Below, one piece after another: positions 1,245-47,477 of a DNA stretch of 64,000 bases. Made by a program: the position numbers and the translations under genes. Position 1 is the stretch's first letter; each line of letters opens with the position of its first letter. The stretch comes from Deltaproteobacteria bacterium (lineage in GTDB: Bacteria; Desulfobacterota; Dissulfuribacteria; Dissulfuribacterales; UBA5754): the NCBI GenBank assembly GCA_036574075.1, contig JAINCN010000021.1, positions 64,652-128,651 of the forward strand. Reading direction: 5' to 3'. The notes under the pieces are model-generated. The model had not been told where the DNA came from and made no database searches. It saw nothing but the letters and a program-made list of their open reading frames with translations.

Positions 1245-2230
1245 GGTCCGTCAGACCCCAGGCCCGTCCTCCCACAGGCCGACAGATAAAGCCTGCGCCC
1301 AAAGGCGCCTATCCTTGCCGACACGTCCCTGTCCACGACAAAACGCCTTGCAAGGGGATCGAAGACGTTTCCATCCGCTCCCTCCACGCCGAGCCGGACG
1401 AACATAACGGGCGGATCCGGGCGACAGGAAAGATTCCGTGCGTACTCGATGAAATCAAAGAAGGTCTCTTTGAGACGGAAGCATCCCCCCCCATTCGCTT
1501 CTATTCCCCTAAAACGTGCCCATGGGGCGAGGTAGCAACCGGCCACGCAAATCTCGTCGATCTCTGTGCAACAATACACGGGCCATGCGAAAACATCCTT
1601 GAGTCCAGCCCCGTAGGACCTGACGAGTTCCGGCACCATGTCGAGATGGGCCAAAACCGCAAGGGGCAGGTTTACATCCAGCTGGGAAAGGATCCTCATG
1701 AACTCCGCAGCACCGCCCTTGCCAACCGCTATCACGACCACCCCTGCTGCATGGTGATCCCTCCATCCCCTATCGCCAGCATGGAGGTGCAATCGGGCGC
1801 GCCTGATCTGGGCCGGCTCCACACCGGCGGCGATTTTCACGATCCGGGCCAGGGACTCGGCCTGTTCGTGGATATCGAGGGAGATGGTCCCGGAGGGTTT
1901 TGGGAAAAAATCCACGGCCCCGAGCCTCAGGGCATCCAGGGTGATTGCGCTCCTGTGGGCAAGTCCGCTCACCATGACCACGGGTTTGGGATACCTCACC
2001 ATGATATGCTTCATGGCCGTGATCCCGTCCATGACGGGCATGTCCACGTCAAGGGTGATGACATCAGGGTCGAGAATGGCGACCGCCTCCAAGGCCTCGA
2101 GCCCGTGCCGTGCCACACCCGCAACCTCTATCTCATTATCTCTCGAAAGGATCTCCACGAGGGCGCGCCTCATGAAGGAGGTATCGTCCACAACAAGTAC
2201 ACGGATCTTGCGTGCTGGCGCCTCAGGCAT
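1229..2230 (-). CDS. CheB-like response regulator paralog with degenerate active site (nucleophile Ser replaced)
   Basis: 333-aa ORF. Receiver: RVLVVDDTSFMRRAL...ITLDVDMPVMDG...KP. The C-terminal domain aligns by eye to the CheB fold, but the nucleophile motif is IAVGKGG (no Ser). AHLD and GADG-like positions are retained. It overlaps the next gene by 16 nt. Confidence 0.75.
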   Translation of the reverse strand: MPEAPARKIRVLVVDDTSFMRRALVEILSRDNEIEVAGVARHGLEALEAVAILDPDVITLDVDMPVMDGITAMKHIMVRYPKPVVMVSGLAHRSAITLDALRLGAVDFFPKPSGTISLDIHEQAESLARIVKIAAGVEPAQIRRARLHLHAGDRGWRDHHAAGVVVIAVGKGGAAEFMRILSQLDVNLPLAVLAHLDMVPELVRSYGAGLKDVFAWPVYCCTEIDEICVAGCYLAPWARFRGIEANGGGCFRLKETFFDFIEYARNLSCRPDPPVMFVRLGVEGADGNVFDPLARRFVVDRDVSARIGAFGRRLYLSACGRTGLGSDGPCHIS

Positions 2231-3092
2231 TGAGCACCCCCGACCATTGCTCTATGAGAAGGTCCTTGTCCTGGCGGAGGCGAAGGGCGATCTTCTTTAC
2301 CGTCTCTGGAGCGAGCCCGAGGGATCTCGGAACGAGCACCTTGTCCACCTCGCCATTTATGGTCCAACCGATGCCGAGTTTCTGACACAGGACATCGGCG
2401 AGAAATACTACGCCTACGGCGACCTCGTGGCATCCTGCTCCCTGGGGTCTGTGGTGATAGCGAAGGACATTCGCGAAAAAATCGCTGAGCCCCCACGAGG
2501 CGGCGAGATAGGCCCCAAGCTCGCCGTGGGTGAGTCCGAAGCGTTCCTCGGCCTCGATGAGGGTGATGCCATCCCTCTCCCTGATAGCAAGGATTTCTCC
2601 CAGTTCGTCAGGGAAATACCGGCAGAGGAGAAATCTCCCCAGGTCGTGTATGAGCCCGGCGGTGAAGATTTCGTTAGCATCCACGCCGGGCATGTTTTCT
2701 GCGATCATCTTTGAGGCCTTCGCAACCCCGATGGAGTGGAGCCATAGATCCCGCACGGCGAATCCCTCCATGTCTGCATACCCGGAAAACGCGGATATCA
2801 AAGACAGTCCGATGACGAGGTTTCTGACCTCCTCGAGGCCAAGCACCACTACCGCACGGGCAACGCTGTTGATCCTGCCGGCACCACCGTAGTACGGGGA
2901 GTTCGCAAGGCGGAGGATCTTCATGGTAAGGACGGGATCCTGCGCGACGATCCGTTCAATGTCGAGGGCTGTAGTGCTCTCCATGTCGAGAACATCAAGG
3001 ACCTGGTGGAACGTATGGGGAATCGGAGGAAGATCTTCCCGCAGGTCGAGCCGCTCCGTGTAGGAAACCCCCATGGACATGGACGAGCCCAT
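2223..3092 (-). CDS. HDOD domain-containing signalling protein
   Basis: 289-aa ORF. Typical HDOD N-terminus LPPIPHTFHQVLDVLDMESTTALDIERIVAQDPVLTMKILRLANSPYYG...VARAVVVLGLEEVRNL and HD-like HDLG. Overlaps the downstream CheB-like gene by 8 nt. Confidence 0.8.
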   Translation of the reverse strand: MGSSMSMGVSYTERLDLREDLPPIPHTFHQVLDVLDMESTTALDIERIVAQDPVLTMKILRLANSPYYGGAGRINSVARAVVVLGLEEVRNLVIGLSLISAFSGYADMEGFAVRDLWLHSIGVAKASKMIAENMPGVDANEIFTAGLIHDLGRFLLCRYFPDELGEILAIRERDGITLIEAEERFGLTHGELGAYLAASWGLSDFFANVLRYHHRPQGAGCHEVAVGVVFLADVLCQKLGIGWTINGEVDKVLVPRSLGLAPETVKKIALRLRQDKDLLIEQWSGVLNA

Positions 3093-3492
3093 CCCTTCTC
3101 ATGGATTTACCACTATTATCGACAGGGACGCGCCAGGACTTGAGAAGGGAGCGGATCGTGGCGGCCCTGCGCAAAAACCTGGTCGTTTCGGCCCCAAAAA
3201 ACGGGCAGGACTGATCACACTGCAAAAACCTCGAAATCTGATCCCACTCAAAAAGCCCTAGATGCAAGGCGCGAAATTTTCCAGGAATGAGGAGGGCGAA
3301 TCACGATTCGCCCCTACAGCGTACGCCGCATGGGCTGGAAAATTGAAGCAACGCCGCGAGAATCGGGTTTTTGAGCGGGATCAGGACTTAATCTTCCCCG
3401 CTTGGCTGTTCGATAAGAAAAATAACCCGCACCAGGGACCGGCATCACACGGGCCAACTCCACTCGAGAGGATCCATCCAAGGCAGGAACAA

Positions 3493-3897
3493 ATGAGCGA
3501 TTTTGTCCTTACCATACCTGTTCTCGAAAAGACCCGACGCGAGATCGAGAGCCACCTCATCGACGCAGGGGCACACACGGTCCTCATCGTAGACCAGGCA
3601 GGCAATATCATCACAAGCTGCGGCAAGACCAACAACAGCATCCAGGACTTCACATCCCTTGCCGCACTCACAGCGGCAAACTTTGCCGCGACCTCCCAGA
3701 TCGCCAGGCTCATCGGGGAGGACGACTTTTCCCTCCTTTTTCACAAGGGGAAAAAGGACAGCATCCATTTCACCCGACTCGGAGACGACTTCATCCTCGT
3801 CACTATCTTCGGGGATGACGTCTCCCTCGGCATCATTCGGCTCAAGATCTCTGAACTCATACATAGACTGTCTTCCATCCTCGGGATCAGCGTCTGA
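3493..3897 (+). CDS. mglB: Roadblock/LC7 family protein, MglB-like (putative GAP of MglA)
   Basis: Internal ATG at 3493 of the 3262-3897 ORF. Sequence MSDFVLTIPVLEKTRREIESHLIDAGAHTVLIVDQAGNIITSCG...FTSLAALTAANFAATSQIARLIG is Roadblock/LC7-like. The stop is 2 nt before the mglA start, matching the mglB-mglA order in Myxococcus. Confidence 0.8.
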   Translation: MSDFVLTIPVLEKTRREIESHLIDAGAHTVLIVDQAGNIITSCGKTNNSIQDFTSLAALTAANFAATSQIARLIGEDDFSLLFHKGKKDSIHFTRLGDDFILVTIFGDDVSLGIIRLKISELIHRLSSILGISV

Positions 3898-3899
3898 CC

Positions 3900-4523
3900 A
3901 TGGCCCTTATCGATCTGAGCAAGAAGGAAGTCCACTGCAAGATCGTCTACTACGGCCCGGGACGATGCGGGAAGACGACCAACCTCATCTATATCTATAA
4001 CGCTATGAGCGAAAAGACCCGGGGAAAGATGCTCACTATCGAGACAAAGGGAGACCGGACCCTGTTTTTCGATCTCCTGCCCATCAAACTCGGAAAGGTG
4101 GCAGGCTTTGACATCCGCATACAGCTCTACACTGTCCCGGGCCAGAGCATCTACGAGGCAACGCGAAAACTCGTCCTAAAGGGTGTGGACGGGATAGTTT
4201 TCGTGGCCGATTCCCTCAAAATCAGACAGCGCAAAAACATCGACAGCCTCCTCGAACTCACTCAGAACCTGAAGGAACTAAACCGCACCCCCTCCGAGAT
4301 TCCCCTTGTGCTCCAATACAACAAACGTGATCTCGTCACCTCGCCCATACCGACCCTCAGCATCGAGGAACTCGAGCGTGACCTCAACAACGGGCGGCGC
4401 CTCCCCTTTTTTGAGGCGGCGGCGATCAAGGGTATAGGGGTCTTTGAGACACTAAAGGAAATCAGCAAACAGACGGTCAGGCACGTGGCGAACAAGCATC
4501 TCTTCACCAAACCGTCTGGATGA
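3900..4523 (+). CDS. mglA: Ras-like small GTPase MglA
   Basis: 207-aa ORF. P-loop KIVYYGPGRCGKTTNL, MglA-specific switch II LYTVPGQ (instead of DxxGQ), NKRD guanine-specificity motif, LKGVDGIVFVADS. Close by eye to M. xanthus MglA. Confidence 0.92.
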   Translation: MALIDLSKKEVHCKIVYYGPGRCGKTTNLIYIYNAMSEKTRGKMLTIETKGDRTLFFDLLPIKLGKVAGFDIRIQLYTVPGQSIYEATRKLVLKGVDGIVFVADSLKIRQRKNIDSLLELTQNLKELNRTPSEIPLVLQYNKRDLVTSPIPTLSIEELERDLNNGRRLPFFEAAAIKGIGVFETLKEISKQTVRHVANKHLFTKPSG

Positions 4524-4565
4524 CTAATGCCACGCCAAAGGGGATTACGCCCTGAAGGAGTTTCC

Positions 4566-6236
4566 ATGAACGATAACACACCCATCCGTGACCAGGACGA
4601 TTTTCTAAATGAAATCGATGGATCGATCGACGCCCTTTTCGTTCCGACTCGACATATCGAGATCGATGCCCTGACAAACGAGATAAGAGAAAAGACGCCA
4701 CCGAACGATCCCTCCTCCGATGCATCCCCATCCCATCTGGAGGCCCATTCACCTGAAAACAGGGCTTCAGATACCCCCCTGACCCTCGAGCTGGAACCGG
4801 AGCCGGCATCCACGCCTGAGCAAGGCCCAAAGGAAGTCCCTTACGGAGACAACGGCCCAGCCCAAGAGGTGACTTCTTCGCTCAGCTCCCTTGACAGGCT
4901 CCGCCAAGGCATCCTTTCCATCGATTGGGAGATCTCGGACACCACTCTCAAGGAGGTGGAGCAATCCCTCGAGGCGATCGGCTCCAACGGGGCCTTTGCC
5001 GATTCAGCTGGGGCCCTTGGCATCATCGCCCTTCTCAAGGGTATATCCATGCAGCTCCGGAAGGATGTGTCCTCCCCCTCGACCCATATCGTTCGCGCCC
5101 TTCAGAAAGGGCTTACCGGGCTCGTCTCCATTGCAGAAGGACCGCCTGAAGACAGGGAAAAACGGATAGCCGCTCTCAGGGAAGAGCTCGAAAAGGTCAT
5201 GTTTCCCGCATCCGGCTTGGATATCGCCGAATCCGGCAGTACCCCCCAGGCCCCAGAACTGCAAAAAACCACTCCGCCACAGGGCGTTGACGCCATCTCG
5301 CTTGACATCGAACTGGAAGACGCCATCGATAAGGCCATACAGCCAAAAGCCGACACAAAGCCGATTATCGAGGCCCCTTTGCACCCCGTATCATCTGGCC
5401 CGCTGACTCAGGGTCTCTCCGCCTGCGTCCCCCCCCCACTCCTTACGCCGACCGAAACCATAGCCCATCCAGAGGGTGTCCTCGAGGCGGCCATCCTGGA
5501 ACACATCTCCCGCCTTAATAGGTGGATCGAGGGCATCCAGCCTATAGAAAGGCTTTTCTCCTCGACACGGGGCATGGAAAAGCTCAGCGCCTTCCATGCT
5601 AGGCTCATAGGAGACATGAGGCGCGAACGGGATCGCCTCGCTGGCATACTCGAAGGGAAAACTTATCAGGCGCCTGAACCCTCCTCCGCAGCACCTTCGC
5701 ATCCATCCGCCCCTGCAGCTCCTGTCAAATCGACGCAACCTGCCTCCCCATCCCCCTTGCCATGGAAAAATCTATGCGTCGTTTCCGGAAAAGAGGGCCT
5801 TATCGCACTGGTCCCTGAGGAAATCGCCTTTTCCGGCCCAAGCCCGTGGTGGGTCAGGCGCAAGGCATTTAAAGCCCGGAGCTTCCCCCTGAGGATGCTC
5901 AAACCCTGGCCATGGTCCCGCCTGAACACGCTTTTTACCGGAGAACTCGGAGAACTCGACGCCTCCGCCCTCTCATCAGCCGAGTTTCCCGTCCATCCGC
6001 TCACGCTCTCAGGAGAAAATGGCCCTGCGATTCCTCGGCGGCCCCACATCCTTGTCCTTTACGCACAAGGACGCGGATTGATCCTCTTTCTTGCAGTAGG
6101 CCCGAGGCCTTTTGCCCTCACGTCCGAATGGAGCTGGAATCCAGGCGATTCGTCCGAATCCGGCCCCATTGCCGGAGAACTCAGGCGCGGGGGGGAAGCC
6201 ATTCCTGTTCTGTCCGTCCGGAAAATCCTTACATAG
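4566..6236 (+). CDS. hypothetical Pro/Ser/Glu-rich protein with possible C-terminal CheW-like domain
   Basis: Strong SD GAAGGAG (4554-4560) lies 5 nt before the ATG at 4566; the ORF track starts at 4527. The long acidic/proline-rich linkers have no recognisable family. The last ~150 aa (LCVVSGKEGLIALVPEEIAF...PHILVLYAQGRGLILFLAVGP...IAGELRRGGEAIPVLSVRKIL) resemble the CheW beta-barrel pattern. Confidence 0.6.
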   Translation: MNDNTPIRDQDDFLNEIDGSIDALFVPTRHIEIDALTNEIREKTPPNDPSSDASPSHLEAHSPENRASDTPLTLELEPEPASTPEQGPKEVPYGDNGPAQEVTSSLSSLDRLRQGILSIDWEISDTTLKEVEQSLEAIGSNGAFADSAGALGIIALLKGISMQLRKDVSSPSTHIVRALQKGLTGLVSIAEGPPEDREKRIAALREELEKVMFPASGLDIAESGSTPQAPELQKTTPPQGVDAISLDIELEDAIDKAIQPKADTKPIIEAPLHPVSSGPLTQGLSACVPPPLLTPTETIAHPEGVLEAAILEHISRLNRWIEGIQPIERLFSSTRGMEKLSAFHARLIGDMRRERDRLAGILEGKTYQAPEPSSAAPSHPSAPAAPVKSTQPASPSPLPWKNLCVVSGKEGLIALVPEEIAFSGPSPWWVRRKAFKARSFPLRMLKPWPWSRLNTLFTGELGELDASALSSAEFPVHPLTLSGENGPAIPRRPHILVLYAQGRGLILFLAVGPRPFALTSEWSWNPGDSSESGPIAGELRRGGEAIPVLSVRKILT

Positions 6237-6254
6237 CCTGCTGGTATCATTGCC

Positions 6255-8570
6255 ATGAATCCTGAATCCATTAAAGCCCTTTTGTACGAGGCGGATCTTT
6301 ACGCCAGCCAAGGCCTCATCTCCGAGGCCCGTCAACTCTATGAAGAACTCCTCGCAAAGGCCGTAAACTATCCACCTCCCCTTGCCACGACCATCAAACA
6401 GAGGCTGGAGGCCCTCACAGGCACACGGACGCAGGCCGTTTCTGCCAACGGCCGCAATCGTCCCGCCCACGATGAAACGGATCGCCATCTCCAGAATGCC
6501 ATCGGCCTCATGGAAGCCGGCTTCCACCGAGAGGCCGTGAGCGAACTCAAGCTCATCCTCGACAAGGGTTATCCCAATGGGGAAATCCATCTCATGATCG
6601 CCGAGGCATATCTCGCCTCCAATCTTCCTTTCGATGCGGTGGATCACTTAGGAGAGGCACTGAAGGACACAAAACTCTCCCCAGAAAAACGCATGGAATG
6701 CCTCTACCGTGCCGCCATCATCCATGAGCAGCTCGGTATGATACCCCAGGCCATAGAAAAATTGAGGCAGATCGTGAGGATCGACCCCGGCTACAGAAAT
6801 TGCCGGGAGCGGCTGGACGGACTGACGCAAAGCGCCCAGAAATTCGGCCAGTACTATCCCCTGATCGCCAAAAATCTCCTGCAGGAAAGCCAGCTCGAGG
6901 AGGCGCGAAGCGCCGCTCGGGCAGGGGGAAAAACCATCGAATCCATCCTTATGACGAGATTTTCTATCGAAAAGGAGGAAATCGGCCGGGCGCTCAGCGA
7001 ATATTACCGCGTACCTTTTATCGAGTTTAACGAGCTCGAGGTGGGAACGGCGCCCGCCTGCATCAAGGGGGTCAAGGAACACTTCTTCCGGGCCAACACC
7101 TGTGTCCCTATCAAGGAAGAACGGGATGTCCTGCTCGTGGCACTCGACAACCCGAACGACCTCGTCAAGATCGACAACATAAAGCGCGTCCTCAAGGCCT
7201 CCCAGTTCGAATTCGCTGTGGCCCTAAAGGAAGACATCGACAAGTTCATCGACTTTTATTTCGGAAAGCTCAGCCTGGGTGGGAAGCAAGGAAACGTCTT
7301 CGATCAGCTGGAGATTTCCGAAGGGGAGGAGGTGGAGACGGATGATGAGGCATCCGACGCATCTGAAGCCGACAGCGTGGTTGTCCAGATGGCGAACACT
7401 ATCATCGAGGACGCCTTTGCAAAAAACGCCTCAGATATCCACATCGAGTCCCTAACCGGGAGGCGGGGGGCTGGAATCCGTCTGAGGATAGACGGCGACT
7501 GCATCCATTACCAGAACGTCCCCTATGAATACAAGCATGCCCTCATCTCCCGCATCAAGATCATGTCATCCCTTGACATCGCGGAAAAGAGGCTCCCTCA
7601 GGACGGAAAGATCAAATTCAAGACGCGACAGGGAAAGACCATCGAACTCCGGGTGGCGACCCTTCCCACCATAGAAGGCAACGAGGACGTGGTCCTTCGT
7701 ATCCTATCGGCATCTGAGGCTATGCCCCTCGACAAGATCGGCCTCATGCCGGATAACCTGGCGGCACTAAAGGATATCCTTGCCATGCCGTACGGCCTCA
7801 TCCTCGTAGTCGGCCCCACGGGTTCTGGAAAGACCACCACACTTCATGCCGCCCTCGGCCACATCAACCGCCCTGAAAAGAAGATCTGGACCGCAGAGGA
7901 TCCCGTGGAAATCGTCCAGGAAGGGCTCCGCCAGGTCCAGGTGAAGCCGGCTATAGGGCTAACATTCGCCCGGGTCCTTAGGGCATTTCTCAGGGCCGAC
8001 CCCGACGTCATCATGGTGGGTGAGACCCGGGATGAAGAAACGGCTACTACCGTTATCGAGGCCTCTCTCACCGGACACCTGGTCTTTTCCACACTCCACA
8101 CGAACTCAGCACCCGAGACGGTCACCCGGCTCCTCGGGATGGGCATGGACCCCTTCAACTTCTCGGACGCACTCCTCGGGATCCTTGCCCAGCGACTTGT
8201 AAAACGCCTCTGCACCAAGTGCAAGGAACCCTACACACCGGACAAGGACGAGATCCAACGACTCATAACGGAATACGGCTCGCACCCATCGAGGCCCCTC
8301 GATCCATCCCGATTCGCATCGGCGACTCTCTACCGGGCGAAGGGCTGCCCATTCTGTAACAACACAGGCTACAAGGGGCGCCTTGCCATCCACGAACTCC
8401 TCATTTCGAACGACGAGTTGAAGAGGCTCATTCAGGAAAAGAGACCGGTCTACGAGATCGCGGATGCCGCCCTGAGGGCGGGCATGCTCACCTTGAAGCA
8501 GGACGGCATCCTGAAGATCCTTTCCGGCGACACCGATATCAAACAGGTCCGCTCGGCATGCATCAAGTAG
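6255..8570 (+). CDS. GspE/PilB-family type IV pilus / T2SS assembly ATPase with N-terminal TPR extension
   Basis: 771-aa ORF. About 200 aa of N-terminal TPR-like repeats (LYASQGLISEARQLYEELL, MEAGFHREAVSELKLIL, GMIPQAIEKLRQIVRIDP). Then a GspE_N-like region, Walker A GPTGSGKTTTL, Asp/His boxes, and a tetracysteine motif CTKCKEPY...CPFCNNTGYKGR. Confidence 0.9.
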   Translation: MNPESIKALLYEADLYASQGLISEARQLYEELLAKAVNYPPPLATTIKQRLEALTGTRTQAVSANGRNRPAHDETDRHLQNAIGLMEAGFHREAVSELKLILDKGYPNGEIHLMIAEAYLASNLPFDAVDHLGEALKDTKLSPEKRMECLYRAAIIHEQLGMIPQAIEKLRQIVRIDPGYRNCRERLDGLTQSAQKFGQYYPLIAKNLLQESQLEEARSAARAGGKTIESILMTRFSIEKEEIGRALSEYYRVPFIEFNELEVGTAPACIKGVKEHFFRANTCVPIKEERDVLLVALDNPNDLVKIDNIKRVLKASQFEFAVALKEDIDKFIDFYFGKLSLGGKQGNVFDQLEISEGEEVETDDEASDASEADSVVVQMANTIIEDAFAKNASDIHIESLTGRRGAGIRLRIDGDCIHYQNVPYEYKHALISRIKIMSSLDIAEKRLPQDGKIKFKTRQGKTIELRVATLPTIEGNEDVVLRILSASEAMPLDKIGLMPDNLAALKDILAMPYGLILVVGPTGSGKTTTLHAALGHINRPEKKIWTAEDPVEIVQEGLRQVQVKPAIGLTFARVLRAFLRADPDVIMVGETRDEETATTVIEASLTGHLVFSTLHTNSAPETVTRLLGMGMDPFNFSDALLGILAQRLVKRLCTKCKEPYTPDKDEIQRLITEYGSHPSRPLDPSRFASATLYRAKGCPFCNNTGYKGRLAIHELLISNDELKRLIQEKRPVYEIADAALRAGMLTLKQDGILKILSGDTDIKQVRSACIK

Positions 8571-10648: not shown

Positions 10649-11461
10649 TCAGTGGCCCTCCCTTGTCATTGTTTTGGCAAGTTCCAGGTTGTACCTGATG
10701 TCTTCGTCGTCAGGGGCAATACTTATGGCCTCCTCGAGGATCTTCCTCGCCTCGTCTGGTCTTTTCAGCATGATCAAGGTGGCTGCAAGGTTGTTACCGA
10801 TCACCGGGTCTTTTTCCCGGCGCCATGCGGCCTGGTAAATCCGGCAGGCCTCTTCGATCCTACCCTGGCTGATCATAGCCTGCGCCTCCATGACGTCTGG
10901 GATGGGAGTCTCCTCTGCCTCGCTCATTTGGGCCTTCTTTTGGCTGGCAGGCGCCTGAAGAGCGGTCAGCTTGTCGGGGATGCGGATCTCCGCATCGGGC
11001 AAAGGCGCCTTGGCCGGCGGTTCATCGACTGCAGGAAGCAGTTTTGTCTCTCTGGAGTCCCGGGTTCCGATCCCGGATCCGGATTCGGACGGTATCGAGG
11101 GTTTCGGATCGTTGGATGCCGGCATGGATGATGCTGGAGGAGCATCCGCCAGTTGCTGCTGAACAGGGGGTGATGACGAGGGAGGCGATCCGGCATCGTT
11201 TCGGATGGCCCTGTCTGACGTCTCTGTTGTCTGTAGAGGCCGGAGGGTCTCACTGTTCATGCGTAGTTTCGAGGTGTCGATCCCCGAGACCGCCACTATG
11301 GCCAGGATCCCTGCCCCTGCAATGACGCCTACTGCGATAGACGAAAGGATCCAGGGGCCCTTCCATCGCCTTTTGGTCCTTTCCCTGAGGGCGAAGGGGG
11401 GCGGGTCTGCGCCGTGTTTCCTGGCCTCTATCCGGGAGATGGCATCAAACAGCCTGCTCAT
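10649..11461 (-). CDS. membrane-anchored TPR protein (MshN-like pilus biogenesis component)
   Basis: 270-aa ORF. One TM segment (WILSSIAVGVIAGAGILAIVAV), a Pro/Ser-rich linker and C-terminal TPR repeats (GRIEEACRIYQAAW..., DEARKILEEAISIAPDD). Positioned between the secretin and the pilins. Confidence 0.65.
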   Translation of the reverse strand: MSRLFDAISRIEARKHGADPPPFALRERTKRRWKGPWILSSIAVGVIAGAGILAIVAVSGIDTSKLRMNSETLRPLQTTETSDRAIRNDAGSPPSSSPPVQQQLADAPPASSMPASNDPKPSIPSESGSGIGTRDSRETKLLPAVDEPPAKAPLPDAEIRIPDKLTALQAPASQKKAQMSEAEETPIPDVMEAQAMISQGRIEEACRIYQAAWRREKDPVIGNNLAATLIMLKRPDEARKILEEAISIAPDDEDIRYNLELAKTMTREGH

Positions 11462-13121
11462 GGCCCATGACCTGTATCTGGAAAATGATCACCAGCTCGA
11501 CACGCTGGGAAGATTCCACATTGTGCCTGAAAGCAGGACCGATCACGGGAAGGGAGCCCAGGACCGGCACACCTACCCTGTTTTCCTTCTTTTTGTCCTG
11601 GATGAGGCCTCCGAGCATGAGTATCTCACCCGGCCTGGCCCGTACTACTGTAGATGCCTCTCTCAGGTTGACCCGAGGGAAGGTATAGCGATTTCCTCCG
11701 GTGAATTCGCGCTCCTCGAGGGAGATGAGGTCGCTCTTTATGGGCACGATATGGAGGTTCACGGTCCCGTCTGCCTCTATGATGGGGGTGATCCCAAGGA
11801 GCACGCCATCGAAGATGGAGCTTATCTCCACGTTTGTATCGGTGGTGGTAAGGTTGTCCCCGGATGTGGTCTCCTGCTCAAGGCTCCTTAGATACGAGAC
11901 CGACTGGCCCACGCTTATGACTGCTGACTGACCGTTCATGGCCTTCAGCCTGGGGTTTGAGAGGGTCTTGAGTGTCCCGTATTCCTCAAGGGCCTTGAAC
12001 ATGAGGCCGACGTCATAATAGCGCTGGGAGAGGTTCAGGCCGTACAGGAAGCCCGACTCCGTGATGTTGCTCGTCATGGTGAAGAGGGCCCCGGTATCCT
12101 TGAGCGCGTCCTTGCTGATGGTGAGTTCAAGCCTCCTCCAGTCGATGCCAAGTTCGTGTCCCTTGGAGAGCTCCACCTCAATGATCTTGGCCTCGATGAG
12201 GACCTGCCTTCTGTATTTTTCCCTCAGCGCATCGAGGTATGTGGCGATCTCCTCAAGGATCCGCGGCCGGGCCCTCACGAGAAGGGTGCCGGTCTGGCGG
12301 TTCAGGAAAAAGGTCCCTTCCTCCCCAAGCCTGGCCTTCACGGCGTTTTCTATCCCTGTGTATATATCGGTGACCGCGTCGGTCGTCTGTCCGGAAAGCT
12401 CGAAGTCTCCAGTGAGCGGGGTGAGGACGTTTTCGCTCCCTTCGCCGCCGCCCCCTCCACCACCGCCGCTGCTCCTGCCACCGCCTCCCCCGAGGACATC
12501 ACCGCCCACGGTGAACCGTGACTGAGGGACCGTGCCCAGGAATTCCAGGTGAAAGAGCCTCTGCGAGGTCCCGTGTATGTAAATGGTGCCCTCAGAATAG
12601 CTCCAGGAGATGTCCATGGCCTTTGTGACAGAGTCCAGGACCTCGCGCACAGGCCGTTCCTGGTAAACGGCAGTGAGGGTAGTCTTGTCACCGAGCATCT
12701 CGTCCACCTCCGGCCCGATCATGAGGTTTGCGCCTGCAGCATGCGCAAGGGCGTGGAGGATGTTCTTGTAGTTTTCATCGACGAAGGTTATAGAGACGAA
12801 CTTCGCGTCGAGGGGGGTTATGGTCTTGAATCGCGGCTGAGCAGAAGAGAGGTTTTTCTTGTGTTCAGGCCTGGTATCGGCAGGGAAAGGGGCATTGAAC
12901 CCCGATTGCGCTCCCAGGTCTTCAGGCATGGGACGCTCGCCCGTGCCGCCCTGCTGCCTGGCGCTGTCAGGGTGAGGCCCCAACCCGGCATTCATAGGTG
13001 CGCAGGCAGAAAACAGTGCCACAGAAAGGGCAAGCGCAATAAAGGGCAGTCCGCTTGTAAAGGTCTTTAAGGCAGACAGTTGCCTGGGCCGTCCGACTAT
13101 GACGTTTCGATGATGTCTCAT
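11445..13121 (-). CDS. secretin (MshL/PilQ/GspD family outer-membrane channel)
   Basis: 558-aa ORF. Secretin core QVLIEAKIIEVELS...NPRLKAMNGQSAVISVGQ...GEILMLGGLIQDKKKENRVGVPVLGSLPVIGPAFR...ELVIIFQIQV. Contains a Gly-rich insert GGGGGRSSGGGGGGGGEGSE. Confidence 0.9.
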   Translation of the reverse strand: MRHHRNVIVGRPRQLSALKTFTSGLPFIALALSVALFSACAPMNAGLGPHPDSARQQGGTGERPMPEDLGAQSGFNAPFPADTRPEHKKNLSSAQPRFKTITPLDAKFVSITFVDENYKNILHALAHAAGANLMIGPEVDEMLGDKTTLTAVYQERPVREVLDSVTKAMDISWSYSEGTIYIHGTSQRLFHLEFLGTVPQSRFTVGGDVLGGGGGRSSGGGGGGGGEGSENVLTPLTGDFELSGQTTDAVTDIYTGIENAVKARLGEEGTFFLNRQTGTLLVRARPRILEEIATYLDALREKYRRQVLIEAKIIEVELSKGHELGIDWRRLELTISKDALKDTGALFTMTSNITESGFLYGLNLSQRYYDVGLMFKALEEYGTLKTLSNPRLKAMNGQSAVISVGQSVSYLRSLEQETTSGDNLTTTDTNVEISSIFDGVLLGITPIIEADGTVNLHIVPIKSDLISLEEREFTGGNRYTFPRVNLREASTVVRARPGEILMLGGLIQDKKKENRVGVPVLGSLPVIGPAFRHNVESSQRVELVIIFQIQVMGHEQAV

Positions 13122-13582: not shown

Positions 13583-14037
13583 AGGAGATACCCCCGTATG
13601 CGGTATTCGAGGTGTCTGTCATCGTTCGTTTCGCCGGCCATGGCAGTTTTGATCCCGGCCTTTGCAGGTTCTTTTCTCGATGCGGAGAAGGAGACGGGGA
13701 CGAATACGCGGTCAGGGGCGCGCAAGGCGGAAAGACGGAGGACAAGCTCTGTAAAGGGCACATCCTGAAGGGTCATCTCCGTCTCCTGCCAAACTATAGC
13801 CGGGTTAGAGGTGAGATCCGGAAACGCGCCGCTGGTCCGTTCATCTCTGTTGGCCACATGGCGTTCGATTTCAGAGATGAGCTGTTCCTCCTTCAGGACG
13901 GCATCGAGGCCTGAGGCGAGTTCCTGTCTTTCCTTCCATGCAGCGACAAAAAACCAGATGGCGACGCAAAGGATCGACACCATTGCGGTCTGAAAAACAA
14001 TGGTTCTTGTCGGAGGGATGGGAGGGCCGTGGTTCAC
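13567..14037 (-). CDS. pilus assembly protein, PilO/MshJ-like (weak)
   Basis: 156-aa ORF with one TM segment (IVFQTAMVSILCVAIWFFVAAW) followed by a coiled-coil-like region. Operon position only. Confidence 0.45.
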   Translation of the reverse strand: MNHGPPIPPTRTIVFQTAMVSILCVAIWFFVAAWKERQELASGLDAVLKEEQLISEIERHVANRDERTSGAFPDLTSNPAIVWQETEMTLQDVPFTELVLRLSALRAPDRVFVPVSFSASRKEPAKAGIKTAMAGETNDDRHLEYRIRGYLLCLAP

Positions 14038-15503
14038 TGGTTCATCCTCATAGCGCCATTGCCGCGCGGAGAAATCGTGCAGGAGAGCACGCCCTCGGAC
14101 GTCTCTTCGGTGTAGCGTCTTTGGACGCGTTCGATGTCAAAGGCTGTCTGGAGGTTATGGATCGCGGCGTCCATCCGCTCGTTCGCCTCGCTAAAGGACG
14201 CAGAGGTGACGAGTTCGATTGCGATTTCCACGGGTTGGGCCAAGAGGGTGGCCGGGTCGCTGGAAACGAGATCCTGACCGGCGCTGTTCGCCATCCTAAG
14301 AGCCGGGGACGCGGCGGCCTTTGTCTCCCCGGATCCCTGGAGACCTTGGACAGCCCGGTTCAGGTCCATTTTTTTGATCTTCACCCCGTCAGGGAGCCTG
14401 TTTGCGAGGGTGACAAGGATCTCGTCCAGCCCGTGCTCGGCCCTGGCCCTGTTCCAGATGGCTGCAAGACGTTCGCGGGCCTCCCGTTCCGGTTGCGGCG
14501 GGAGTGTCTCCTCGATGAGCCGTCTTTTTGCCTCAACTTCCCGGGTACGATTGGCCAGATCGGCCTCAAGGGAAGAGTTCGTCCGCGCAAGGACAAGGGT
14601 GCCCGCAAGCAAAAGGGCGATTGCAGGAAGCGCGGCAAGGCTCGCCCATTTTGATACCTTCCCGATCGCGTAGGCCATCTTCCAGTCTTTAGGCACGAGA
14701 TCGTAGGCCGGGTCGGCGAACGCCACACCAAAGAGGTCAGGATGATCGTCCACCAGAGAAGGGTCCTGGACGTCCAGGATGGAATCCCACGCCGGTTGCA
14801 GGATATTCCGGCCGCCGAGCATGGCTGGGCACGAGCGCCGTTGCGGGCCGGTGGCGATGAAATGGCTGATATCGAGATCGTACTGCCTACGGGCCGTCTG
14901 GCTGACCATGTCGAAGGTCTGGGCCAGCATCGACTCCCGGAGGGATCCGTCCGTGTCAAGGGGGACAATCTGGGCGTGGAGAAGGACCGCGCCTGAAACA
15001 ACCATGATTTCAAGGAGTTCTTTATGGAAGATGGCAACGAGGACAGGTTCCTGGGTGAGGCGTCCCACGAGCCCGGCGATCGAGGCATGGCTGGGGATAA
15101 GGCCCGTGAGCCTCCATTCGCGCGCGCCGTGGCCGAGTTCCAAAATGGGTGCTACATCGCTTTCAGGCAGGGTGAGGACGGAGAGAATCTGATTTCCTGA
15201 GGCAGTGGTGCCGAGGGCCTTTATGCGATGGGCCACAGCCTGGCCTTCCGGCCACAGACCGCTCTGGCGGATCCGCTCAAGGACGCGGAGATTGAGGATT
15301 TCTTGTTTCGTTTTCGGGAACACTTCCCTGAAGATATGGATCTTCCTTGACGGGATGGTAACGGTCACTTCACCTGCGTTTACAGGCGCAGGGCCATGGA
15401 TCTCCTCGATCTGTCCGAAAGACGGCCTGTTAGGCGGTCCAGTGACGCGGACCCTGAGCCACGTCCCTCTTTCCTTTCCGGGTTTTGCGTAAAAACGGCC
15501 CAT
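14034..15503 (-). CDS. fused PilM-like / PilN-like pilus assembly protein (MshI-like)
   Basis: Start moved to the ATG at 15503 (MGRFYAKPGKE...) because the upstream part of the 15641 ORF lies inside the repeat element. About 330 aa cytoplasmic domain, a TM segment (WASLAALPAIALLLAGTLVLA), then coiled-coil and periplasmic domains. Confidence 0.55.
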   Translation of the reverse strand: MGRFYAKPGKERGTWLRVRVTGPPNRPSFGQIEEIHGPAPVNAGEVTVTIPSRKIHIFREVFPKTKQEILNLRVLERIRQSGLWPEGQAVAHRIKALGTTASGNQILSVLTLPESDVAPILELGHGAREWRLTGLIPSHASIAGLVGRLTQEPVLVAIFHKELLEIMVVSGAVLLHAQIVPLDTDGSLRESMLAQTFDMVSQTARRQYDLDISHFIATGPQRRSCPAMLGGRNILQPAWDSILDVQDPSLVDDHPDLFGVAFADPAYDLVPKDWKMAYAIGKVSKWASLAALPAIALLLAGTLVLARTNSSLEADLANRTREVEAKRRLIEETLPPQPEREARERLAAIWNRARAEHGLDEILVTLANRLPDGVKIKKMDLNRAVQGLQGSGETKAAASPALRMANSAGQDLVSSDPATLLAQPVEIAIELVTSASFSEANERMDAAIHNLQTAFDIERVQRRYTEETSEGVLSCTISPRGNGAMRMNQ

Positions 15504-15538
15504 TCTGGTTCTTTCGGCCTCAAGGCGTTTGCAAGAAG

Positions 15539-15712
15539 CCTGAATCCGTGATCCTACGCCCGGGATATTTGTTTCGTGCGGCAAATAGCCCCCGTCCATT
15601 GGGGCAGATTTGCCGACAGCGCCCATCCATGGGCGCTTCACTCCACAAATACCCCGGCCGTAGGCTTATGGTGTGAAATCGAAAGGGTGAGTGCATATCT
15701 CACGGATTCAGG
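15539..15712 (+). mobile_element. MITE-like structured repeat, full copy 1 (174 bp)
   Basis: 13-bp terminal inverted repeats CCTGAATCCGTGA (15539-15551) and TCACGGATTCAGG (15700-15712). Flanked by the direct repeat AAGAAG (15533-15538 and 15713-15718). The interior has nested hairpins and is near-identical to the reverse complement of 47303-47477. Confidence 0.75.
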
Positions 15713-16602
15713 AAGAAGATGGGCAAAGCCGGCAGCATGCGCCGCATAAAGGCGAAAAGACCCCCCTGACATGGTTCAGGCAGGGTCTCTCGCGCGCGAG
15801 CGATGTGCTCTGCTCCGATTTTGTGCGATCCAGAGGCCGCGACCATGAGGAGCGAGCGGTCCATGAGCCTGTTTATAAGCCTGGGGATCCCGGATGTTGC
15901 CCGTTGGATGCGGCCGACGGCCCTTTGCGAGGGCTTGAGATCGGCCCTTCCCGCCCGGGCGAGCCTGAAAGCGATGTATTCTTCGGTCTCCGCCCTTGTC
16001 AGGGGGCGAAGCCGCTCCTGCACGACAACGCGCTGTGAGAGCTGGCGGAGACGCGGGTCTTCGAGGAGCCCTTCCAGCTCGGGTTGCCCCATGAGGACGA
16101 TCTGGAGGAGTTTCCGGGATGATGTCTCCACGTTTGACAGGAGGCGCAGCTGCTCCAGGGTCTCGACCGGGAGATCCTGGGCCTCGTCCACTATGATGAG
16201 AAGCTCCCTTCCTTGCCCTGCAAGTTCAAGGAGCCTCGTCTGGAAACGCCTGAGAAGCGTGCCCAGGTCTTCGCCATCCGCGTCACAGCCCATGTCGTCA
16301 AGTATCAGTCTCAGGAGACCAGGAGGGTCCACAGCAGGGGTAAGTACCAGGACCGGCACCTTTTGGGTCCCGATCTCCTGGAGAAGGAGCTTCAAAAGGA
16401 GTGTCTTTCCGGTGCCCGGAGGGCCGGTAAGCACCATGAAGCCCTCACCCCGCCCAATTCCGTATTTCAGTGCCTCCTTTGCGGCAATGTGGGGCCGCGC
16501 CGGATAAAAGAAGGCCGGGTCAGGAGAGAGACGAAAGGGCGCATCCCTGAATCCTAAGCACCCCAGATAGTCATCATGGATGGTCTCCGCCATATCTTTC
16601 AA
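15700..16602 (-). CDS. ExeA/MshM-family AAA ATPase
   Basis: 300-aa ORF. Walker A LTGPPGTGKTLLLK and Walker B LLIIVDEAQDL, with ExeA/GspA/MshM-like architecture. The last three codons and the TGA stop (LNP*) are encoded by the terminal inverted repeat of the element. Confidence 0.85.
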   Translation of the reverse strand: MKDMAETIHDDYLGCLGFRDAPFRLSPDPAFFYPARPHIAAKEALKYGIGRGEGFMVLTGPPGTGKTLLLKLLLQEIGTQKVPVLVLTPAVDPPGLLRLILDDMGCDADGEDLGTLLRRFQTRLLELAGQGRELLIIVDEAQDLPVETLEQLRLLSNVETSSRKLLQIVLMGQPELEGLLEDPRLRQLSQRVVVQERLRPLTRAETEEYIAFRLARAGRADLKPSQRAVGRIQRATSGIPRLINRLMDRSLLMVAASGSHKIGAEHIARARETLPEPCQGGLFAFMRRMLPALPIFFLNP

Positions 16603-16616: not shown

Positions 16617-17819
16617 TTATTTGATGGAACCCATGAGGTCGTAGATAGGACCAAGGAGGCCGATCGCCATCAGGACCATTATGAGCCCGGCGAAAACGAG
16701 CAGGATCGGCTCGATCATCTTGGAGGTGGATTCGACGAGCTTGTCCACGCGCTTCATGGAGTACTCACCGAGGGATGAAAGCTGCCTTGAAAGGGCCCCG
16801 GTCTGTTCACCCACGGAGATCATGCGGATTACAAAGGGTTCGAAGAGTTTGGTGGACATGAAGGCCTCCGATATCTGCTGGCCTGATGCAATGCCGTCCC
16901 GGATCTTCCTGATGGCGTTTTTCATCCTTTCGGAATTGGTCGAGGTTTCCATGAGCTCGAGGGCCCTTTGGAACTGGATCCCTGCCCCAACGAGAAGGGC
17001 GAGGTTATCGAAGAAGAAGGCGAGGGATGCGGTGCGTATTACATTTCCTATGACTGGCGTGCGCTCGATGCAGGTACCAAGGAAGCTTTTAAGGCGCCTG
17101 TTGCGTCTCGATACAGCAGCGAGCCCTAAAATGGCAATGATCAAGAGGGGGGCGACAAACCACCACTGCCTGCAGAAGGAAGAAAATCCCATGAGGAGTC
17201 GAGTGGCCAGGGGGAGACTCGTTAACCCCATCTCCTTGAAGAGTCCAAGTATCTGGGGAAGGACGACTATCATCCAAAAGGCAAGTGCCCCAGTCATGGC
17301 CACAAACACCACTGATGGATACACCAAGGCCCGCTTTGTGTTGGACACGATATGTTCCACCTTCTCTATGTGGCGCGCCCCGTCTTCGAGCGTTTTGTCC
17401 AGGCGTCCTGTCTCTTCCCCGATACGGACCAGGGAGACCACGATGCTGGAAAAGACACCCTTGAGGCCATCCATGGTCTCGGACAGAGGATTGCCGACAT
17501 GGATTCCACGCAGGATCCTCTTGACGAGCAGCCTGAGGGCCGGGTCTCCCGGGGTCCCAGCGATGTCGGTGAGGGCCTGCCTGAGGGGGATCCCGCCTGC
17601 AAGCATTATGGAGATGTTCCTGAGAAGCTCTACCTTGGCAAGACGCTTGAGACGCCTTCGGCCGGCAAGGCGGGTGAAAAGGGAGACACGTCCGTAGTTA
17701 ACGAGGGTGAGGCCTTCGGCCCTGAGGCCTTCGTACATTGCCCCTACGGAGGGAAAGGACCCTATGTCCTTTCTCAATACCCCGGCATTGTCCATTGCCT
17801 CGTAGGAATATAAGGGCAT
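16617..17819 (-). CDS. type II secretion / type IV pilus platform protein (GspF/PilC/MshG family)
   Basis: 400-aa ORF with two GspF repeats and three TM regions. Motifs ...LAGGIPLRQAL... and ...LVGAGIQFQRALELM... Confidence 0.9.
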   Translation of the reverse strand: MPLYSYEAMDNAGVLRKDIGSFPSVGAMYEGLRAEGLTLVNYGRVSLFTRLAGRRRLKRLAKVELLRNISIMLAGGIPLRQALTDIAGTPGDPALRLLVKRILRGIHVGNPLSETMDGLKGVFSSIVVSLVRIGEETGRLDKTLEDGARHIEKVEHIVSNTKRALVYPSVVFVAMTGALAFWMIVVLPQILGLFKEMGLTSLPLATRLLMGFSSFCRQWWFVAPLLIIAILGLAAVSRRNRRLKSFLGTCIERTPVIGNVIRTASLAFFFDNLALLVGAGIQFQRALELMETSTNSERMKNAIRKIRDGIASGQQISEAFMSTKLFEPFVIRMISVGEQTGALSRQLSSLGEYSMKRVDKLVESTSKMIEPILLVFAGLIMVLMAIGLLGPIYDLMGSIK

Positions 17820-19465
17820 TATCCTACCACCCGCATAAATTCTTCTATGCTTGTCTCGCCCCGCGCCACCATCCGGAGGCCAGAGGCTGTCAGATCCGTA
17901 AATCCTTCAGCCCTTAATCTGTCTTCGATGTGCCAGAGCGGGACATCGTCGGCTATGAGTCGGGCCACTTCCTTGCTCACCTTAAATACCTCGCATATCG
18001 CGGACCTCCCGAGATAACCCTTGCCCTGGCATTCTGGACAGCCCCCGGCCTTGAAGTAATTGCCGTCAGGTGAAAGACCGTATCGTTCCAGGATCTCCCG
18101 TGACGGGGAATAGGGCTTTTTGCAGAACGGGCAGAGTTTTCGGATGAGCCGTTGCGATATGACGCCGGCAAGTGTGGATGCAAGGATGAAGGGCGATACG
18201 TTTAGGTCCTTGAGGCGGGCGATCGCCCCGATGGCAGTGGTGGTGTGGAGTGTGGACAGGACCAGGTGTCCGGTGAGTGCGGCTGTGGCTGCGAGGGAGG
18301 CGGTCTCCTCGTCCCTGATCTCGCCTACGAGGATGACGTCCGGGTCCTGCCGGAGGAAGGTCCGTATGGCGGACGCAAATGTATAGCCGGCCTTTTCGTT
18401 CACCTGGGTCTGGCGTATCATCGAATACTCGTACTCGATAGGATCCTCGACGGTGGTGATGTTCTTACCGATGGCGTCCTGTTCCTTGAGGGCAGCGTAA
18501 AGGGTCGTGGTCTTGCCACTCCCTGTGGGTCCGGTTATGAGGACCATGCCGTCAGGGCGGGCGAACAGGCTGCGAATGGTATCGAGCTGACTGCCCTCGA
18601 AGCCCAGGTCCCGGATCGTGACGTGGTCCGTGCCGCGCGACGGGAGAATACGCATGACCACATTTTCGCCGTGGTTGGTGAGGACCGTCGAGACCCGGAT
18701 GTCGTATACGCTTCCAAGGAACTCAAAGCCCATGCGTCCGTCCTGGGGCCTGCGCTGTTCAGCGATATCCATGCCAGAGCGGATCTTGATGGTGGAGACC
18801 AGGCGGTTGTGGAGGGCGAGAGGAAAGACATGGGCAGGAGACAGGACCCCGTCTATCCTCAGGATGATCCTTGACGAGAGGCTACTCGGGGTGAGGTGGA
18901 TATCCGTGGTCCTGTGGCTTACCGCGGCTGCAAGCAGGATGTCCAGTATCCGGTTGGCGTCGATGTCGGCCCCCTGGTCGATCCTCAGACGGGCTATGGC
19001 ATCCTCGATATACCTTTCAGGCGGGTTCTCCAGTAGATAATAAAACTGTTCAACGAGTCTTTTCAGGATGTTGCGACCTGCCACATGGATCGTCGGCGCA
19101 AGGCCCGTGATCCTGAACACCGTCTCGGCAGGCAGGGGATCGTAGGGATCGTGCACCGCGATATGGAGCCGACCGTCCTTCATCATGATGGGCAAGACGC
19201 ACTGCTGGCGGGCAACAGCGGCAGGGATCCTTTTCAGGAGCTCCATGTCAGGGGTGAAGGCCATGAGGTCGACGAAGGGTCTTCCTGCCTGTTCCGCGAT
19301 GACCCTCGCAAGGTCCGAATCTGAGACGAACCCGATACGGAGCAGGCAGTCCCCGAGCCGTTCTCCAGTCGCCTTCTGTTCGGTGAGGGCGAACTCGATC
19401 TGGTTCTCCCTGACAAGACCGCTCTCGAAGAGGAGTTTACCTATCTGTGGCCTGGGGCCTGGCAT
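17819..19465 (-). CDS. MshE-like GspE/PilB-family pilus assembly ATPase with N-terminal MshEN-type domain
   Basis: 548-aa ORF. Walker A GPTGSGKTTTL and tetracysteine CPFCKKPY...CPECQGKGYLGR. The N-terminus carries two 24-residue RLGxxLLxxGLVxxxxLxxxLxxQ-type motifs separated by 5 residues. Confidence 0.9.
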   Translation of the reverse strand: MPGPRPQIGKLLFESGLVRENQIEFALTEQKATGERLGDCLLRIGFVSDSDLARVIAEQAGRPFVDLMAFTPDMELLKRIPAAVARQQCVLPIMMKDGRLHIAVHDPYDPLPAETVFRITGLAPTIHVAGRNILKRLVEQFYYLLENPPERYIEDAIARLRIDQGADIDANRILDILLAAAVSHRTTDIHLTPSSLSSRIILRIDGVLSPAHVFPLALHNRLVSTIKIRSGMDIAEQRRPQDGRMGFEFLGSVYDIRVSTVLTNHGENVVMRILPSRGTDHVTIRDLGFEGSQLDTIRSLFARPDGMVLITGPTGSGKTTTLYAALKEQDAIGKNITTVEDPIEYEYSMIRQTQVNEKAGYTFASAIRTFLRQDPDVILVGEIRDEETASLAATAALTGHLVLSTLHTTTAIGAIARLKDLNVSPFILASTLAGVISQRLIRKLCPFCKKPYSPSREILERYGLSPDGNYFKAGGCPECQGKGYLGRSAICEVFKVSKEVARLIADDVPLWHIEDRLRAEGFTDLTASGLRMVARGETSIEEFMRVVG

Positions 19466-19539
19466 GGTTCTTGTCCTTTTTCCGTTTCAAGGAACGTATC
19501 GGAACCATGCGGTTTTTTCTGAAGGGGGTAGAAGGGATC

Positions 19540-41877: not shown

Positions 41878-41983
41878 CCCTTATGGGACGCGGAGTCAGG
41901 GGGCTATTTGCCCTGTCTGCCCTGTCTACCGAAAGACTGGCTCACGATACAAATGCCCCGGCCGCCGGATTATCGCAAAAAAC

Positions 41984-47302: not shown

Positions 47303-47477
47303 CCTGAATCCGTTGAGATATGAACTTAACTTGGCAATTTTTCACAATAAGCCGACGTTCGGGGTATTTGTGAAGTGAGGCGCCCATGGACGGGCGCCGT
47401 CGGCAAATCTGCCCCCATGGATGGGGGCTATTTGCCGCACGGAACAAATACCCCGAACGTCGGCTCACGGATTCAGG
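47303..47477 (-). mobile_element. MITE-like structured repeat, full copy 2 (175 bp, inverted relative to copy 1)
   Basis: Terminal inverted repeats CCTGAATCCGTTGA (47303-47316) and TCACGGATTCAGG (47465-47477). Flanked by the direct repeat TTATC (47298-47302 and 47478-47482). A perfect 21-bp long-range stem GCCGACGTTCGGGGTATTTGT/ACAAATACCCCGAACGTCGGC encloses two hairpins. Confidence 0.75.

Follow-up and report, generated by a model that had tools for sequence, protein, structure and literature searches.

What is a spacer of about 197 nt doing in an operon whose genes otherwise follow each other with hardly a gap? The question is raised by a pilus-type operon on contig JAINCN010000021.1 of Deltaproteobacteria bacterium UBA5754 (assembly GCA_036574075.1), of which we analysed a stretch of 64,000 nt, called the window below. 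Between the gene of an ExeA/MshM-like ATPase and the next gene of the operon, both on the minus strand, lies a G+C-rich segment of 174 bp that a previous reading, made from the letters of the window alone (the sequence-only reading), had taken for something like a miniature transposable element with inverted repeats (MITE) supplying the stop codon of the ATPase gene. Our analysis leads to the same answer. The segment is a MITE: it is small and non-coding, it has terminal repeats, it exists in multiple copies with copy-specific duplications, and it is missing from the corresponding sites of related operons. The reading as a whole, i.e. an IS1380-derived MITE that inserted in this lineage, after its split from the closest sampled relatives, just before the stop codon of the ATPase gene, with a near-neutral outcome, is one that we hold with high confidence.

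As proposed, the segment is bounded by perfect 13-bp inverted repeats, CCTGAATCCGTGA and its exact reverse complement TCACGGATTCAGG, which lie 148 nt apart and were also returned by a repeat finder, and the hexamer AAGAAG is indeed found on both flanks (Table 1). Such a perfect pair is not by itself beyond chance, about 0.2 of them with arms no more than 200 nt apart being expected (by estimate) in 64 kb. We consider the feature real because the whole 174 bp recur elsewhere in the window, as copy B, and because the 13-mer is in excess: when up to two mismatches are allowed, CCTGAATCCGTGA occurs 10 times in the window against 2.4 ± 1.7 times in shuffled sequences, none of which reached 10. Apart from the tail of the ATPase gene and spurious frames, no open reading frame (ORF) overlaps the segment, which has no transposase and no credible coding capacity.

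That the segment is an insert is seen from orthologous operons. The closest relatives of the ATPase are P0002 (94% identity) and P0003 (86-87%), and their contigs carry the same operon. When compared with the window by blastn, contigs L012 (GCA_973317295.1) and L013 are collinear with it, at 91-95% and 82-84% DNA identity, and in both cases the alignments break exactly at 15712 and at 15538. Neither contig has the element: in L012 the ATPase gene is followed, after a gap of 10 nt, by the 489-amino-acid gene, and in L013 the ATPase gene and the next gene overlap. Aligned with these orthologs, the 174 bp appear as a clean insertion. The description of the element as an insert in an otherwise tightly packed operon is thus confirmed, and the contrary outcome that the sequence-only reading had itself named, orthologous loci carrying the sequence as conserved intergenic RNA, did not occur.

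A profile built from seven copies found four members of the family in the window: copy A in the operon, the intact copy B, a solo end and a decayed relic. Copies in other genomes were sought by scanning one genome per species for the 13-bp end together with a conserved inner word. Full copies were found in this way in Deltaproteobacteria bacterium UBA5754 (L005 and L006) and in a sulfidic-cave (SulCav) metagenome-assembled genome (MAG; L008), and two variants of 140 bp in L007, also from Deltaproteobacteria bacterium UBA5754 (2587-2726 and 7361-7500), which are devoid of a 35-nt right-hand module; L003, L004 and L011 hold copies truncated by contig ends. The terminal inverted repeats are conserved in the other copies, and the flanking duplications differ from copy to copy: GATAA for copy B, AGTGC in L006, TAAAA in L005 and AAAAT for the first L007 variant, all of 5 bp, to which may be added an element with the same ends and a different interior in L010 (ATAAA, 5 bp). 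The same strain was also assembled independently (L001, Logan SRR15502205; 100% identity over 8,137 bp), and that contig stops 30 bp into the element; such a break is the usual signature of a repeat. Further copies, on whose existence the sequence-only reading had made its interpretation depend, are therefore present both in the window and in other genomes. There was no match when the element was searched by blastn in its distant mode against 72,556 plasmids, and a search of JGI metagenome contigs with the end-plus-TATTTGT pattern gave a single, unrelated element (L014).

The ends of the element point to its origin. Viral and prophage contigs were scanned for the 13-mer followed by each of the possible next bases, and inverted occurrences were then paired. 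Four elements of autonomous size emerged (Table 1), each coding for one protein of 447-467 amino acids. The proteins of L068, L088 and L114 match the NCBIfam model NF033539, 'IS1380 family transposase', with 312-380 bits (the cut-off is 180), as well as Pfam PF13701, and that of L299 is 55% identical to the L068 transposase. Because the same 13-mer bounds elements that encode IS1380-family transposases, we classify the 174-bp segment as an IS1380-type MITE. Judged by its ends, it is an IS1380-derived non-autonomous transposon, presumably moved in trans by an IS1380-family DDE transposase recognizing CCTGAATCCGTGA ends; its interior is unrelated to the autonomous elements found. A 6-bp duplication at copy A would fall in the range of this IS1380 subgroup (4-6 bp). 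Comparison may be made with ISEcp1, which has CCTAGATTCTACGT as left repeat and makes 5-bp AT-rich duplications (PMC6061673), and with IS1247, of 1,672 bp, which makes a 5-bp duplication (PMC3281130). The ends of our element begin with CCT, as do both of these insertion sequences (ISEcp1 at its left repeat), but only 6 of the 13 end positions are common to the element and ISEcp1; the duplications are short (4-6 bp) and mostly AT-rich, which resembles the two insertion sequences. Unlike the insertion sequences of the IS1380 family, the element has no transposase gene and is only 174 bp long. Origins of the IS1634, ISH3 or Tn3/Tn402 type, suggested by duplications of 5-6 bp, were dropped when identical ends were found on elements with an IS1380 transposase. 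Recurrent 'pairs' of the 13-mer at distances of 894 bp and about 1308 bp in viral contigs proved to be conserved phage sequence whose flanks are conserved too, with no transposase, and were put down to chance. In the literature searched, no paper describes an IS1380-derived MITE or this 13-mer, full-text matches to the latter being unrelated primers or shRNA; this absence argues only weakly for novelty at the level of the MITE family.

How were the two flanking genes affected? The minus-strand ORF of the ATPase (the database copy, P0001, starts at ATG 16593 and has 297 amino acids) ends ...PIFFLNP, and its TGA, at 15702-15700, is within the right repeat, which does supply the last three codons and the stop, as proposed. 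Removal of the element together with one AAGAAG (180 bp, in frame) gives back a 300-amino-acid protein ending ...LPALPIFLQTP at the TGA at 15522-15520, and ortholog P0002 ends ...FFFSQTP (LPDLPIFFFSQTP) at the homologous TGA. The element thus sits 11 nt, or four codons, upstream of the native stop. The sequence-only reading had supposed that the insertion replaced the native 3′ end or hit it exactly: the end residues were replaced, but the site lies before the native stop, the relic of which is still recognizable. Alignment of the C-termini of homologs confirms that LQTP was exchanged for FLNP; only about the last four residues are altered and the length of the protein is essentially unchanged. 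The change would be tolerated because the C-terminal tail, the least conserved part of the family in the homolog alignment, is variable (L013 reads it in another frame). A restored ATPase of 347 amino acids was considered and rejected, since it would need removal of 5 bp instead of 6, which misfits the flanks, and would have a tail that no homologue matches (the closest ones cover 85-87% of the query).

Past the element comes the downstream gene, whose orthologs in L012 and L013 both have 489 amino acids. An ORF call of 535 amino acids had been judged to include 46 spurious N-terminal codons consisting of element sequence; the 46 codons are spurious, but only about 34 of them are element sequence (15641-15539), the others coming from the flanking repeat, from the native gene end that was displaced, and from the spacer. 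The gene had also been labelled mshI-like, and it has no Pfam or NCBIfam match. The distance between the ATPase stop and the next start codon, 16 nt natively, is now about 196-197 nt.

Table 1. Coordinates of the element, of its parts and relatives, and of the genes it touches. Positions refer to the window unless a contig is named.
Feature	Location	Strand	Remarks
MITE copy A	15539-15712		174 bp; non-coding; IS1380-type termini; supported by sequence, other copies and alignment breaks against L012 and L013
Left terminal inverted repeat	15539-15551	+	CCTGAATCCGTGA; sequence and repeat finder
Right terminal inverted repeat	15700-15712	-	TCACGGATTCAGG; minus strand encodes L-N-P and the TGA of the ATPase gene
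Flanking direct repeat, left	15533-15538		AAGAAG; sequence
Flanking direct repeat, right	15713-15718		AAGAAG; sequence
Outer stem	15548-15671		about 25 pairs, roughly 15548-15572 with 15645-15671; encloses a three-way junction; compensatory double changes in five of its pairs among 7 copies; repeat finder, folds
Inner hairpin 1	15579-15615		GGCAAATAGCCCCC / GGGGCAGATTTGCC; repeat finder, consensus fold
Inner hairpin 2	15618-15637		AGCGCCCAT / ATGGGCGCT; repeat finder, consensus fold
Part of the right-hand module of about 35 nt	15672-15699		absent from the 140-bp variants L007a and L007b (alignment columns)
MITE copy B, intact	47303-47477	-	opposite orientation to copy A; 85% identical to A, E 1e-52; duplication GATAA (TTATC on + strand), 5 bp
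MITE copy C, solo end	53139-53172	-	34 bp; terminal repeat plus the outer stem's left arm
Relic of the family, decayed	41899-41982		nhmmer E 0.002-0.0035
ExeA/MshM-like AAA ATPase gene	15700-16602	-	ORF of 300 amino acids from TTG 16602; PF13401 AAA_22; stop inside the MITE
Displaced native 3′ end of the ATPase gene	15520-15532	-	(L)QTP codons and native TGA 15522-15520; now untranslated
Downstream 489-amino-acid gene	14034-15503	-	start ATG 15503-15501; 91% identity over 489/489 amino acids to the L012 ortholog from its ATG
Autonomous-size element, L068	6904-8628		1,725 bp; both repeats perfect; duplication CTAA (4 bp)
Autonomous-size element, L088	3420-5118		1,699 bp; repeats with 0 and 1 mismatch; no duplication seen
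Autonomous-size element, L114	10769-12462		1,694 bp; repeats with 1 and 0 mismatch; no duplication seen
Autonomous-size element, L299 (= L317)	4322-6059		1,738 bp; repeats with 1 and 0 mismatch; duplication TGTTTA (6 bp)

From these data a simple course of events can be proposed. After the split from the closest sampled relatives, a copy of the MITE would have inserted into the ATPase gene at an A/G-rich site, four codons short of its stop; the end of the element happens to read ...L-N-P-TGA in frame, so that the ATPase stays near full length with only its last, poorly conserved residues changed. The downstream gene retains its own start codon and leader. The insertion would have been tolerated because the length of the ATPase and the start and leader of the next gene were kept. 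With the stop moved from 16 to 196 nt before the next start, translational coupling between the two genes, if there was any, would therefore have been lost.

The operon RNA is now predicted to carry a very stable, branched hairpin. The element folds with about -93 kcal/mol on either strand (z about -8), the hairpin is retained when folded within a longer sequence, and the consensus fold has a stem made by the terminal repeats, an outer stem of 25 pairs, and two hairpins that are G+C-rich and have loops of the GTCCAT type. Two-sided changes that preserve pairing affect six pairs among the seven copies, against 2.4 ± 1.2 in shuffles (3 of 500 reach six) and 0-2 in slid controls. This suggests, for the seven copies compared, that the hairpin is maintained across copies, by a constraint that could act on DNA or on RNA. 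By analogy with other transcribed palindromes, such a hairpin could be a target for RNase III or could stand in the way of 3′ exonucleases. On the minus strand it is followed by CUUCUUGCAAACG, with no U-tract, and so does not qualify as an intrinsic terminator; the sole terminator-like match within the element has a weak 5-bp stem and a T-poor tail, and the three such matches in 15200-16000 are weak and in the range of chance (1.3 ± 1.1 in shuffles). A sigma-70 promoter scan of 15200-16000 found none. Lacking both a U-tract and a promoter-like site, the element is therefore unlikely to act as a canonical terminator or as a mobile promoter. As a side observation on the minus-strand RNA, a GCCCAU just upstream of the element (15719-15727) is complementary to the AUGGGC at the downstream start codon (15495-15505), and in a 271-nt fold the MITE hairpin brings the two together, the minimum free energy structure having an ensemble frequency of only 0.0004; that this pairing could mask the start of the downstream gene is thus only weakly suggested by the folding model. 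The net effect of the insertion is most likely near-neutral. This is our best guess because copies A and B are oppositely oriented with respect to local transcription and because the relatives do without the element.

Several observations weigh against this interpretation and must be set beside it. The AAGAAG pair of copy A sits in a CTT tract common to the empty site of L012: when the latter, CAT(CTT)3CTCGCAAAC, is compared with the window freed of the element with both hexamers kept, CAT(CTT)4GCAAAC, the two have equal length and differ by one substitution. Judging from the flanks, the pair could be in part ancestral, or else a duplication of 3 bp or a genuine one of 6 bp, and a pure 5-bp duplication does not fit; each option that does fit would keep the frame and the native stop. 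The 6-bp duplication that the sequence-only reading had presented as the signature of transposition is thus ambiguous at copy A, whereas the other copies do carry 5-bp duplications of their own. Since the hexamer lies in a pre-existing CTT tract, the case for transposition rests on these other copies and on the empty sites, not on the hexamer. The length itself is discordant, for the duplication is of 5 bp, not 6, in five of the six other MITE copies with a scorable duplication, and L008 shows none. Neither the window nor the MITE-carrying loci examined, a limited sampling, yielded a gene for an IS1380 transposase, so that an autonomous partner in the genome is hypothetical; the genes beside MITE copies in the sampled loci are housekeeping ones only (RtcB, histidine kinase, GGDEF-EAL, FBPase, CNNM and TonB). 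The autonomous elements sharing the 13-bp end come from AT-rich viral or prophage contigs outside this lineage. Finally, the compensatory stem changes, from seven copies only, could mean a structural constraint of some other kind.

This last point leads to an alternative that keeps the MITE but gives it a task, i.e. that it was exapted as a regulatory RNA module (an RNase III site, a decay barrier or a partial terminator) setting the levels of the ATPase and platform protein relative to those of the assembly and secretin proteins. REP/BIME elements, Correia elements of Neisseria and ERIC elements of Yersinia alter mRNA decay, and by analogy with these precedents a very stable hairpin on the sense strand of the operon, one that persists in the longer fold and whose outer stem kept its pairing through compensatory changes, could do likewise. 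For REPs, effects on mRNA stability are cited in PMC3184786. But the operons of the two nearest relatives are otherwise intact without the insertion and hence can dispense with it, transcription runs through copies A and B in opposite orientations with respect to their neighbour genes, the hairpin has neither a U-tract after it nor a promoter-like site around it, and the covariation of seven copies may stem from constraints of transposition or from maintenance of the palindrome at the DNA level. We therefore regard exaptation as unlikely. A broader variant, in which the hairpin of the whole family, preserved by compensatory substitutions in copies from different genomes, would be a functional RNA or DNA module, for instance a site bound by RNase III or another protein and bearing two GTCCAT-loop hairpins, and the pilus copy would have been co-opted to uncouple the ATPase and platform genes from the assembly and secretin genes, appears to us doubtful to a slightly greater degree.

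The other alternatives deny the IS1380 origin or the insertion itself. A palindrome of the REP/BIME or REPIN type, spread by a RAYT (IS200/IS605-like) enzyme and not derived from a DDE transposon, would account for the two GC-rich core hairpins with similar GTCCAT loops, reminiscent of paired REPs, and for the REP-like presence of elements with these ends in almost all intergenic spacers of a Reinekea MAG (see below); yet REP and REPIN elements make no duplications, whereas copy-specific 5-bp ones are found here, the ends are identical to those of elements with an IS1380-family DDE transposase, and there is no RAYT gene among the loci examined, all of which makes this origin very improbable. 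Even less can be said for a conserved structured intergenic RNA (an attenuator, a small RNA or a riboswitch-like leader of the downstream gene) that merely resembles a transposon. The strong structure predicted on both strands and the location between two operon genes would suit it, but it is refuted by the empty sites, with a 10-nt spacer in L012 and a gene overlap in L013; the element is also found in unrelated contexts, upstream of ispG and beside RtcB and histidine kinase genes, and Rfam matches nothing, either in the whole window with gathering scores or in 15400-15850 with E up to 1. We give just as little credit to an assembly artefact, in which the repeat would have been misjoined into the operon. 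The source is a MAG, repeats do cause misjoins, and the independent Logan contig ends within the element; against this, that contig has the same gene-to-element junction, with identity continuing over the 30 bp where the element begins, the window is collinear with the ortholog on both flanks, and a true insertion is consistent with the flanking repeat and with the relic, in frame, of the native gene end.

An IS1380-type MITE being the preferred reading, how does it compare with other small repeats? The closest published analogue in behaviour is Chunjie, a MITE of Geobacter uraniireducens Rf4 (Chen et al. 2008, Genetics 179:2291; PMC3184786, PMC10969869). Like Chunjie, our element resides in a deltaproteobacterium-like host, within an operon that it does not destroy, is multi-copy with size variants and with some copies overlapping protein genes (PMC3184786, PMC10969869), and would form an RNA hairpin of great stability (for Chunjie, about -98 to -130 kcal/mol). 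Unlike Chunjie, which is A+T-rich and has 21-bp terminal repeats and 9-bp duplications (PMC3184786), it is G+C-rich, with 13-bp repeats, 5-6-bp duplications and IS1380-type ends, and so belongs to a different family. Another parallel is provided by intragenic MITEs, such as Rickettsia palindromic elements, intragenic ERIC elements and QMITE1 of Coxiella, which are translated in frame and alter the product without inactivating it (PMC10969869). Here too element sequence is translated in frame with the host gene and does not inactivate it; but while those MITEs usually add tens of residues inside the protein, this one contributes three codons and a stop, and the length is essentially the same. 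With REP/BIME, Correia and ERIC elements it has in common that it is a transcribed palindromic repeat between operon genes, and the resemblance lies in the possibility of working through an RNA hairpin. It is not one of family membership: REPs do not combine terminal repeats with duplications, whereas the element has both. Correia elements have 26-bp repeats and a TA duplication.

Several observations concern the individual copies. Copy B lies 52 nt upstream of the start of ispG (GcpE), and its GATAA overlaps the TGA of an unassigned minus-strand ORF (47481-47939), which would make it a second insertion at a gene end if the ORF is real. About 85 nt separate the solo end from the TonB-like gene (52187-53053, minus strand) upstream of which it lies, and over 35 nt it matches, with 100% identity, one end of the contig-edge copy in the sulfidic-cave MAG L003; the relic is in the intergenic stretch after ORF 41071-41877. 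Both L007 variants form an almost perfect hairpin, and in the second, the core with its two hairpins is turned round with respect to the intact end, the other end being degenerate. Near-identical copies in L003, L004, L008 and L011 come from SulCav_AS07-7 MAGs labelled Lentisphaera, Anaerolinea, Syntrophus and Brevinema, all from one metagenome, and most of the contigs concerned are short and break off within the element; mis-binning of such repeat-ended contigs seems more likely than true spread across phyla. Finally, in the Reinekea sp. MAG JARRJP01 the 13-mer occurs 12 times in L002 (scaffold 199, 1000-6600) and eight times in L009 (scaffold 74), within 8 kb, where it bounds small elements of about 75-250 bp, with interiors unrelated to the MITE of the window, in almost all spacers between housekeeping genes. 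This looks like saturation of intergenic DNA by IS1380-type MITEs in a gammaproteobacterium, and it fits the idea of an IS1380 subgroup whose 13-bp end is invariant, which would have given rise more than once, in distant phyla, to MITEs unrelated to each other and would be able to fill intergenic DNA.

As to the operon, it encodes an MshE-type ATPase with an MshEN domain, which binds cyclic di-GMP, a GspF-like platform protein, the ExeA/AAA_22 ATPase, three proteins with no firm family match (489, 156 and 154 amino acids), an MshL-like secretin and a TPR protein; the coordinates given with the secretin and the MshEN ATPase are 11445-13121 and 17819-19465. The secretin is closest to the MshL equivalog, just below its cut-off (247.2 against 250.2 bits). 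The operon may fairly be called 'MSHA-like pilus / type II secretion-like'. Its genes come in the order E, G/F, M, three unknowns, L and N-like TPR protein, unlike the MSHA genes of Vibrio. The nearest named relatives of the ExeA-like ATPase, with about 60% identity, are in Dissulfurirhabdus and Dissulfurimicrobium. The 3′ end of its gene is a variable CTT/CTC tract (15520-15540 in the window, about 6870-6910 in L012 and 2075-2101 in L013), in which the distance from ATC to AAC is 14 or 20 nt in the window, 20 in L012 and 21 in L013, and in L013 the tail, read in another frame, runs ...LLANALRLSEPL and stops where an ATGA is shared with the next gene; from these sequences, the last 10 or so codons of the gene appear to be evolutionarily fluid. 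In L012, about 90 extra bp (2979-3068) between the rsmB-like and MshE-like ATPase genes have no counterpart at about 19466-19539 of the window.

For the annotation of this genome, our results mean that the present stop codon and last residues of the ATPase gene are transposon-derived, that the 535-amino-acid call for the next gene is 46 codons too long, and that the spacer of about 197 nt in a tight operon is an insertion and not a regulatory region. There is good documentation already for MITEs in operons, and for those from which a gene takes its stop codon or a protein a short tail, and the present case is a clean example and no surprise; it would gain interest if the hairpin shaped the expression of the pilus operon. 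More generally, it adds a family of MITEs whose ends link it to transposases of the IS1380 type, with copies in MAGs of uncultured, sulfur-cycling, Thermodesulfobacteriota-like bacteria, and with the same 13-bp end found on unrelated small elements in a gammaproteobacterial MAG.

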